From a virus (Duplodnaviria > Heunggongvirae > Uroviricota > Caudoviricetes), in the IMG/VR virus record IMGVR_UViG_2534682164_000011, positions 1-6,713 of that record: 6,713 nt of DNA; one strand, given 5' to 3'. The notes beneath the pieces were generated by a model, which was given only the letters and a program-made list of their open reading frames with translations, ran no database searches and was not told where the DNA came from. Position numbers and translations under genes: made by a program. Positions 2,371 through 3,011 of this stretch are shown one piece after another (the stretch's first letter is position 1; every line of letters starts with the position of its first letter).

Positions 2371-2399
2371 ATTAAACACAATTTGTTTTCTTGTGTCAA
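2371..2399 (-). promoter_or_regulatory. Leftward sigma70-type promoter candidate (pL-like): -35 TTGACA (2399-2394), 17-bp spacer, -10 TTTAAT (2376-2371)
   Basis: Reverse complement of 2371-2399 reads TTGACA-N17-TTTAAT. It lies just downstream of the repressor-gene terminator and upstream of the small ORF/LRR operon, the position of pL in lambdoid phages. It overlaps operator-like palindromes. Confidence 0.45.
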
Positions 2400-2412
2400 C
2401 ACGCAATGTGTT
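2375..2412. promoter_or_regulatory. Two operator-like inverted repeats (OL-like): AACACAATTTGTT (2375-2387) and AACACGCAATGTGTT (2398-2412)
   Basis: Both fit A(A/T)CAC-N5-GTG(T/A)T dyad symmetry, shared with two sites in the repressor/cro intergenic region. They overlap the -10 and -35 of the leftward promoter candidate. Confidence 0.4.
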
Positions 2413-2440
2413 TTATGGTGAGTGTCATATGATGATGCTA

Positions 2441-2466
2441 CAAAAAAGCCCGCTGATAGCGGGCTG
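2441..2466 (-). terminator. Rho-independent terminator downstream of the repressor gene
   Basis: On the minus strand: stem AGCCCGC (loop TATCA) GCGGGCT followed immediately by TTTTTT (plus-strand aaaaaa 2442-2447). It begins about 30 nt after the repressor stop at 2496-2498. Confidence 0.6.
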
Positions 2467-2495
2467 ATTGGCATATTACTGTGATAGCAAGATCA

Positions 2496-2915
2496 TTATT
2501 CCGGTGGGGGATTATCTTTAATCCTGCCTCTCAAATATTTTTCTACATACTCATCGATTTCTTTTAGCCGGACTTCAAATAGCTCAATCATTCGTTGTTG
2601 TTCTGAGCCCGGTAGCTGGTTAAACAACTCAAGAAGTTTTCGTTGGGATTCATTTAACCACAATTCAGAAGATTCCTGTTCTCCAAAGAGGAGCTCAGGA
2701 GGAGATATGCCAAGTGCCTTTCCCAATACGACAGCGTCATGTACTCCAACATTTCTGCTGCCCGCCTCATAGTTACCTATACGCGATTGCGTCCATCCGC
2801 AGATTTCAGCAAGTTTTCCTTGAGATAAACCAAGCTTCTGCCTGCGCTCTTTAAGACGCATTGCAATTTTGTCATTGAGCCTACTAGCGGCAATTTTTTC
2901 GTTTTCTTTTTCCAT
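2496..2915 (-). CDS. Prophage repressor, XRE-family HTH, DicA/RacR-type (139 aa, no peptidase domain)
   Basis: ORF with AAGGA SD 4 nt upstream of the ATG. HTH region LGLSQGKLAEICGWTQSRIGNYEAGSRNVGV; C-terminal segment LLELFNQLPGSEQQRMIELFE resembles the DicA-type C-terminus as recalled. Divergent from a Cro-like gene. Too short to carry an S24 LexA-like autoprotease domain. Confidence 0.8.
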   Translation of the reverse strand: MEKENEKIAASRLNDKIAMRLKERRQKLGLSQGKLAEICGWTQSRIGNYEAGSRNVGVHDAVVLGKALGISPPELLFGEQESSELWLNESQRKLLELFNQLPGSEQQRMIELFEVRLKEIDEYVEKYLRGRIKDNPPPE

Positions 2916-3011
2916 TGCATCCTTGTATCACGAATCGTGATTTACATAAAACACAAAACAGCTTGGCTATATAACACAAGGTGTGTTTAAAATTGTCATC
3001 GGAGGTTTTCA
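2916..3011. promoter_or_regulatory. Divergent promoter/operator region between repressor and cro-like gene (OR-like), with two 15-bp palindromes at 2927-2941 (ATCACGAATCGTGAT) and 2973-2987 (AACACAAGGTGTGTT)
   Basis: 96-bp intergenic region. A perfect 7-1-7 palindrome and a perfect 6-3-6 palindrome, both fitting A(A/T)CAC-N5-GTG(T/A)T. Candidate rightward promoter elements TTGGCT (2963-2968) and TTTAAAAT (2986-2993). GGAGG SD at 3001-3005 for the cro-like gene. Confidence 0.55.

Follow-up and report, generated by a model that had tools for sequence, protein, structure and literature searches.

Does the region around the repressor gene of this prophage carry a genetic switch built like that of bacteriophage lambda, and which protein reads its sites? 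The locus lies in a stretch of 6,713 nucleotides (nt) from a virus of the Caudoviricetes, IMG/VR record IMGVR_UViG_2534682164_000011, positions 1 to 6,713, which we call the window. A preliminary description of this DNA had pointed to four dyad-symmetric sites flanking the gene of a 139-amino-acid (aa) repressor, compared them with the right (OR) and left (OL) operators of lambda, and proposed that they reflect the binding specificity of a DicA-type repressor and possibly of the adjacent Cro-like protein. We conclude from sequence comparison that the sites are very probably the operators of the 139-aa repressor in a switch congruent with that of lambda. The likeness to the OR and OL arrangement is backed by the gene context, the overlap with candidate promoters, phylogenetic footprinting, the co-variation of the sites with the recognition helix and the matching geometry. 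The switch belongs to a well-known kind, and its repressor is a DicA-like, non-LexA protein in a cryptic prophage of the Rac/CP-933P type.

All four sites of the preliminary description were found directly in the sequence. With one more site described below, they form two clusters, two sites at OL and three at OR between the divergent genes of the repressor and the Cro-like protein. The sites and the two genes, both encoding helix-turn-helix (HTH) proteins, are as follows.

2375-2389, OL1, AACACAATTTGTTTT, in a register of 15 base pairs (bp), occupying the spacer and the -10 element of the leftward promoter PL
2398-2412, OL2, AACACGCAATGTGTT, an exact match to the motif
2927-2941, OR3, ATCACGAATCGTGAT, an exact match to the motif, center at -19 from the repressor ATG
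2950-2964, OR2, AACACAAAACAGCTT, a weak site of which only the left half is good, center at -42
2973-2987, OR1, AACACAAGGTGTGTT, an exact match to the motif, center at -65
2496-2915, minus strand, repressor gene, 139 aa, HTH_3
3012-3254, plus strand, gene of the Cro-like HTH_3 protein, 80 aa, with the Shine-Dalgarno sequence GGAGG at 3001-3005

The motif AWCAC-N5-GTGWT has three exact matches in the window where 0.04 are expected, and none of 200 shuffled sequences reached three. When one mismatch is allowed, the single additional match in the window is 2375-2389 (AACACAATTTGTTTT). This leftmost site had been described as a 13-bp dyad (2375-2387, AACACAATTTGTT) next to three sites of 15 bp. 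The three lengths of 15 bp stand, but the 13-bp reading was rejected because changes in the center of the site in relatives (AATTT, AATGC and AATAC) break the shorter dyad. The outer AACAC and GTTTT are kept in these relatives as the center changes, and both the 15-bp register and the 23-bp phasing are preserved. The earlier count of two sites in the repressor/cro region and two at the leftward promoter was correct as far as it went, but the fifth site OR2 had been overlooked. The center of OR2 lies exactly 23 bp from those of OR3 and OR1, and the spacing between OL1 and OL2 is 23 bp as well. At the place of a third OL site, 23-24 bp past OL2 (2416-2444), we found a conserved block without a motif dyad, and an OL3 is not claimed.

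The scan was extended to a 41-kb stretch of Escherichia coli (E. coli) DNA around a near-complete copy of the prophage. Matches with at most one mismatch occur there at the same four positions only. Scored with a weight matrix derived from them, the four sites reach 18.7-20.4 bits on the 41 kb, the best other score is 12.1 bits, from an overlapping register of OL1, and the next is 10.6 bits. No other site comes near the score of the four, and the motif does not occur at comparable frequency elsewhere in the window or in the 41 kb. A literature search for the exact site sequences found nothing.

Two further features were noted beside the sites. The first is the conserved block at 2416-2444, TGGTGAGTGTCATATGATGATGCTAC, flanked by OL2 and the repressor terminator and occupying the place of OL3 in lambda, phage mEp213 and the relatives that we call class C. 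An exact 12-nt direct repeat, AAAACAGCTTGG, is found at 2955-2966, within OR2 and the -35 element of the rightward promoter PR, and again at 3035-3046, in codons 8-12 of the cro-like gene.

The selective conservation of the half-sites carries much of the argument. The sample for the footprint consisted of 80 IMG/VR viral-contig loci whose repressors are 83-100% identical to that of the window, together with the window itself, which makes 81 loci and 36 OR haplotypes. A scan of genome contigs with the repressor alignment confirmed no locus, and the comparison drew on the viral contigs and on collections of phage and E. coli sequences. The half-site columns came from OR3 and OR1 (both halves of each) and from the left half of OR2. 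None of these 25 columns varies among the 36 haplotypes, against 38 of the 71 other intergenic columns (Fisher's exact P=2.3e-7). The variation reaches into the sites themselves, since six of the ten central columns of OR1 and OR3 vary, four of the five in OR1. Positions 2948-2958, which take in the left half of OR2, are invariant, and the right part of OR2, which coincides with the -35 element of PR, is variable. In OL2 (34 haplotypes) both half-sites are invariant and 4-5 of the five central positions vary. In OL1 of class A (97-100% identity) AACAC is invariant, the center is variable and GTTTT is nearly invariant.

The position of the sites relative to promoter-like elements fits this picture. 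The promoter elements listed here are candidates that we assign from conservation and analogy.

2394-2399, minus strand, -35 element of PL, TTGACA, conserved as TTGAC(A/G/T) in nearly all relatives and in every specificity class
2371-2376, minus strand, candidate -10 element of PL, TTTAAT, 17 bp from the -35 element
2963-2968, plus strand, -35 element of PR, TTGGCT, degenerate, in the same place relative to O2 as in PL and lambda PR
2986-2993, plus strand, -10 region of PR, TTTAAA (17-bp spacer) or TAAAAT (19-bp spacer), conserved as TTTA(A/G)AAT
2922-2930, minus strand, candidate extended -10 element of the repressor maintenance promoter PRM, TGaTACAAG, with its end 7 nt upstream of position 2915, the A of the repressor ATG
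2447-2465, minus strand, intrinsic terminator of the repressor gene, an 8-bp stem with six GC pairs followed by TTTTTT

As had been proposed, the OL pair lies on the candidate leftward promoter (TTGACA-17-TTTAAT) beyond the terminator at 2447-2465, which directly follows the repressor stop and sits between the repressor gene and OL/PL. The first two bases of the PL -35 element are the last two of OL2, like lambda OR2 and PR. Among the OL haplotypes, the plus-strand ATTAAA of the PL -10 element shows no variation in class A (34 haplotypes) or in class A' (14). At the PR -35 element, 35 of the 36 OR haplotypes have TTGAC (A at 2966), and with its TTGGCT the window copy of PR looks weakened. The sole common polymorphism in the PR -10 region, A/G at 2990, hits the least critical position of the TAAAAT reading. 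Placed in the same orientation, PL and PR align with each other and with lambda PR, and in all three the -35 element starts with the last two bases of O2, and the spacer is filled by O1, which reaches as far as the -10 element. A consensus scan for promoters and terminators picked up the repressor terminator, and its two promoter matches, at 2468-2496 and 2993-3022, were disregarded, as they fit no gene start.

For the repressor gene, all classes have an element TGnTA(A/C/G)A(A/T)(G/T) over the proximal half of OR3, ending 6-7 nt before the ATG, in the same geometry as lambda PRM. The sequence at the PRM -35 position (TTTATG) is poor and variable, which fits a need for an activator bound at -42. 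We think it rather likely, by analogy, that the PRM transcript starts at 2915 and is leaderless, because the paaR2 transcript of prophage CP-933P from E. coli O157:H7 was found by 5' RACE to be leaderless (PMC8630535).

Further evidence comes from heteroimmune relatives. In these the positions of the sites are kept, and the outer bases of the half-sites differ together with the residues that precede the conserved Ser-Arg (SR) of helix 3. The pairs of helix start, source and half-site are listed below.

TQ-SR, window class and its 84% variant, AACAC (OR3: ATCAC)
AQ-SR, Citrobacter phage Chris1, AACAC
SQ-SR, mEp213 cI, A(A/T)CAC
GS-SR, class of phage vB_Apl-pPE4 and its 84% variant, CTCAC
AA-SR and GA-SR, two further classes, TTCAC
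TA-SR, loci L115-117 and Aeromonas phage pAEv1818, GACAC or GCCAC

Counted together, five helix variants go with four distinct half-site types at conserved positions. Phage vB_Apl-pPE4 provides a clear case, as its repressor is 64% identical to that of the window, the flanking DNA is nearly identical and the Cro-like protein is 100% identical, and its sites occupy the same positions with the sequence CTCAC-N5-GTGAG. The conserved half of OR2 switches by class as well, to AACAC, CTCAC or TTCAC. The pairing of Q with A occurs in four lineages, lambda included. Chris1 and mEp213 are independent tests of this pairing, because it was derived from the window and pPE4 classes before those two records were read, and both agree with it. 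We also noted that IMG/VR contig 2574180332_000004 carries a class A cassette (L057, AACAC) and a class B' cassette (L090, CTCAC) 47 kb apart, an arrangement compatible with a host that carries two heteroimmune prophages.

The comparison with lambda gives the co-variation a structural counterpart. BLASTP aligns the HTH of the repressor (LGLSQGKLAEICGWTQSRIG) to lambda CI without gaps, and Q32, Q43 and S44 correspond to Gln33, Gln44 and Ser45. In lambda CI, Gln44 makes contact with A2 of TATCAC and Ser45 with its C4:G pair, and the pairing of Q with A fits because Gln44 is the residue at A2. The lambda operators, taken from the annotation of the lambda record, are OR3 TATCACCGCAAGGGATA, OR2 TAACACCGTGCGTGTTG and OR1 TACCTCTGGCGGTGATA, and the window motif fits OR2 without a mismatch, differing at one position from OR3 and at two from OR1. 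Both systems share the 17-bp-type dyad core TA(T/A)CAC-N5-GTG(A/T)TA and have three OR sites, centered at -19, -42 and -66 in lambda and at -19, -42 and -65 here, with spacings of 23/24 bp and 23/23 bp, respectively. The eight other lineages examined likewise have OR3 centered at -19 or -20, in pAEv1818 and mEp213 on the assumption of an alternative in-frame ATG. As in lambda, O2 lies over the -35 element and O1 over the -10 element of PR, which in the window are candidate elements, and a second cluster is found at PL. The repressor ATG is also the PRM start in lambda, as it may be in the window.

Some differences from lambda concern the proteins. The repressor is only 31% identical to CI in the HTH domain, and it has a short DicA-like C-terminal domain whereas CI has a RecA-cleavable S24 domain. 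The window has an HTH_3 paralogue of the repressor as its Cro-like protein, which is not related to the lambda Cro fold (E=0.04), and a YdaT-type protein in place of CII. On the DNA side, the window shows two recognizable OL sites only, and the central bases of the operators, which are read by the N-terminal arm of lambda CI, vary freely.

Based on this comparison we propose the following mechanism. Repressor dimers would recognize every half-site, (t)A(A/T)CAC, with the first residues of the recognition helix (Q43-S44-R45), and the five central bases would not be read. With O1 in the spacer and -10 element of PR and PL and O2 on the -35 element, occupancy would shut both promoters and silence the cro-like/ydaT/replication operon and the kil/recET/xis/int operon. 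OR2 appears intrinsically weak and would probably be filled cooperatively through the C-terminal domain of the repressor. From its position at -42 from the repressor start, it could activate a weak, leaderless PRM. Occupation of OR3, at -19 and over the extended -10 element of PRM, would turn repressor synthesis off. Looping between OL and OR may take place as well.

Several observations weigh against this reading of the locus. Because the motif comes from the sites that it was tested on, the shuffle test has some circularity, and the comparative data are the independent support. OR2 is a half-site only, and in class A', at 84% identity, conservation does not extend to the right half of OL1. 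The conservation of the half-sites is partly confounded with promoter elements, since several of these reach into the sites, namely the PRM -10 element into the proximal half of OR3, the PL -35 element into the edge of OL2, and the -10 candidates of PL and PR into the outer edges of OL1 and OR1, respectively. The -10 element of PR is itself ambiguous, with a spacer of 17 or 19 bp, and the consensus promoter scan of the window called none of PL, PR and PRM; the PL -10 element was missed because it has no A at position 2. In the window class, an AAGGA sequence resembling a Shine-Dalgarno sequence lies 5 nt before the repressor ATG, which argues that at least some repressor transcripts carry a leader.

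Could the dyads then be chance features of AT-rich promoter DNA, conserved through promoter elements or recent ancestry? Several half-sites do share bases with -35 or -10 hexamers, overall identity is 97-100% for most class A loci, and the motif was chosen post hoc. However, there is plentiful variation between and inside the sites and none in the half-sites (P=2.3e-7), and the half-sites that lie off the promoter hexamers, namely the distal half of OR3, the left half of OR1 and the right half of OL2, are equally invariant. Distant lineages with repressors 60-65% identical, or with a LexA-type cI, share the architecture with class-specific half-sites, and we regard a chance origin as highly improbable. 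A host regulator of the CRP or LexA type instead of a phage protein is hardly credible either. The CRP consensus includes TCAC and GTGA, and so does the motif, but the orientation of the two is inverted relative to the CRP site (TGTGA-N6-TCACA), and a LexA box (CTGT-N8-ACAG) is absent from the sites. Moreover, the outer bases follow the allele of the phage repressor while the hosts stay the same, and a class A and a class B' cassette lie on one contig.

The 80-aa Cro-like protein deserves closer attention as a main reader of the dyads, or as an equal of the repressor as in lambda. Its HTH is 45% identical to that of the repressor, of which it is a paralogue, and has the same W-x-Q-S-R at the start of helix 3, where it aligns with Gln27-Ser28 of lambda Cro. 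In CP-933P the footprints of YdaS overlap those of PaaR2 (PMC8630535), and in Aeromonas phage pAEv1818 the Cro-like helix KRSR occurs with GACAC operators, a plausible match of Arg with G. Against such a role, the identical 80-aa protein is found with class A (AACAC) and class B (CTCAC) cassettes, and a second variant (84 aa), whose helix is the same, accompanies A' and B'. The YdaS protein of Rac does not repress racR (PMC9638921). On this comparison the operators track the repressor and not the Cro-like protein, and we consider the Cro-like protein an improbable main or equal reader. The proposal that the motif reflects the specificity of the repressor is thus supported by the co-variation with its helix, but its extension to the Cro-like protein is not. 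The repressor of 139 aa is the preferred reader of the sites.

How this repressor is related to known proteins was examined next to its operators. It consists of an N-terminal HTH_3 domain (Pfam E=5e-13) and a DicA-like helical C-terminal domain, and a Pfam search of the 139 aa returned HTH families only and no peptidase S24 domain. The identity to K-12 DicA is 29% over the full length, including the C-terminal LLELFN-LP-SEQ motif. The NCBIfam DicA model NF007257 aligns over the full length with 57.3 bits, below its curated cut-off of 101. The label "DicA-type" is therefore a loose one, with the two-domain layout and the 29% identity in its favor and the NCBIfam score and a different operator sequence against it. 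The same C-terminal domain is joined to an unrelated HTH in Klebsiella phage Kp4865-4 (L143), and the same HTH is joined to a LexA-type peptidase S24 C-terminal domain in mEp213 (L144). Judging from these alignments, repressor domains are shuffled among phages.

Among characterized systems, prophage CP-933P is close in organization, and its OR and OL operators for PaaR2 have been footprinted (PMC8630535). Like the window, it has OR and OL clusters, a repressor that is short and not of the LexA type, and ydaT behind a divergent HTH gene. The intergenic region is 97 bp in CP-933P (PMC8630535) and 96 bp in the window. In contrast, the operators of PaaR2 and YdaS are 18-bp repeats with the consensus GTTTAGTAA, and the toxin-antitoxin pair paaA2-parE2 lies behind the repressor gene, where a terminator directly follows in the window. 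Rac, with RacR, YdaS and YdaT, has the same gene order, the leftward kil-recET operon that intact copies of the window prophage also carry, and three repressor operators in the divergent region (PMC9638921, PMC5700373). Its repressor is about 28% identical to that of the window, but the RacR operators are (T/A)TAGGC-N3-GCCTA(T/A), and O3 overlaps the racR start codon (PMC9638921, PMC5700373). DicA and DicC of the Qin prophage resemble the window in the two-domain layout and in having a divergently oriented partner, and DicA is considered to work from its operator as an activator of its own promoter (PMC3441716). This operator, Oc (TTGTTAGTCATAACTAACAA; PMC3441716), differs from the window sites A(A/T)CAC-N5-GTG(A/T)T, and DicC is not homologous to the Cro-like protein of the window.

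In DNA recognition, phage mEp213 is a further close match. The N-terminal domain of its cI is 58% identical to that of the window repressor, with the same recognition helix QSRIGNYE, and its OR and OL sites, three of each, conform to A(A/T)CAC-N5-GTG(A/T)T, the right half of OR2 (GTGTA) approximately. Its OR3 center falls at -19 when the start codon is taken to be the second in-frame ATG. The cI protein of mEp213 is different in its LexA-type peptidase S24 C-terminal domain, and the phage has a lambda-type CII with a promoter for repressor establishment (PRE). The class C relatives resemble mEp213 in having three OL sites, whereas the window has two. A literature search found no published operator analysis of mEp213.

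The unit in which the operators travel can be read from the mosaic breaks between classes. These fall just left of the PL -10 element (after 2367) and near the cro ribosome-binding site (~2995-3001). Because the breaks lie at these points and the Cro variants cross the classes, the exchanged immunity unit would be PL/OL, the repressor gene and OR without cro. The proximal half of OR3, ATCAC, is the sole A-type half-site common to all classes. It was considered as a sign of Cro binding, but the extended -10 element of PRM (TGATAnAAT) explains this half equally well, and we keep the Cro explanation only as a hypothesis.

It is possible, though on the unlikely side, that a PL/OL-repressor-OR cassette swapped without cro and a DNA-reading module common to several repressor architectures have two consequences, a Cro-like protein that is not immunity-specific and a repressor that binds across phages. 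In its action the Cro-like protein may be limited to the OR3/PRM half-site ATCAC, which does not depend on class, or to the CAC-N5-GTG core. The uncleavable repressor could bind the operators of phages such as mEp213, which has the same helix and motif; lambda OR2 is an exact fit to the motif too. If this were true, the host would gain a cross-immunity that is insensitive to the SOS response, or a co-resident prophage would be locked.

The window as a whole is the immunity and early region of a lambdoid prophage of the Rac/CP-933P type that was cut down by insertion sequences, and the prophage is a cryptic remnant. The remaining features are the following.

859-1890, DDE_3 (IS630-type) transposase
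2035-2253, minus strand, DUF1391 (YdaG-like) gene
3244-3261, dyad TTGATTCATGAAAATCAG resembling an operator of YdaT (the CII equivalent), one mismatch to OM TTGATT-N6-AATCAA, 0.05 expected
3251-3673, plus strand, gene of a YdaT-family protein, 140 aa (Pfam YdaT_toxin E=2e-11)
6066-6545, rve-domain transposase fragment, which truncates the region after the DUF977 gene

The ydaT gene directly follows the divergent HTH gene, and its start overlaps the cro-like stop codon. The dyad at 3244-3261 spans this junction, where CP-933P has a PRE-like region, and in CP-933P the YdaT site TTGATT-N6-AATCAA lies likewise at the end of the cro-like gene (PMC9986795). The Cro-like protein does not belong to Pfam YdaS_toxin (PF15943) and matched HTH_3, HTH_19 and HTH_31 only (E<=0.01). 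Past ydaT, the rightward genes encode DUF1376, DnaC-like and DUF977 proteins, in an order that runs from the repressor through cro-like and ydaT to replication genes. In the E. coli genome with the near-complete prophage copy, the leftward operon consists of DUF1391, kil, ydaE, recE, recT, ralR, xis and int. In the window, at 237-1890 and 6066-6713, leucine-rich-repeat fragments of open reading frames (Pfam LRR_8 below cut-off, LRR_4) and the IS630-type transposase stand where the kil-recET-int part of the PL operon would be, and the rve-domain transposase fragment follows the DUF977 gene.

Between the terminator at 2447-2465 and OL, the list of open reading frames and the Pfam search gave no frame with a family match, and an Rfam search of the window found no RNA family. 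Inverted repeats of 20-27 nt at 2817-2872 and 3016-3059 connect the 5' parts of the repressor and cro-like genes, because the HTH coding regions of the two genes are paralogous (45% protein identity). The 1047-bp core region is present at a coverage of at least 80% in 153 of 5426 complete E. coli genomes and partially in 792.

For a repressor family that is common in the prophages of E. coli and Shigella, the analysis yields a concrete map of the operators and a simple code of recognition, in which the outer base of the half-site is paired with the residue just before the Ser-Arg of helix 3. The layout of the lambda switch, with sites at -19, -42 and -65 and a probably leaderless repressor mRNA, persists with a different C-terminal domain of the repressor, and because of this difference the repressor would not be inducible by the usual RecA-mediated cleavage. 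The modular exchange of HTH, C-terminal domain and cro is documented here among heteroimmune prophages, and it bears on the origin of new immunities and on the protection against superinfection by cryptic prophages.

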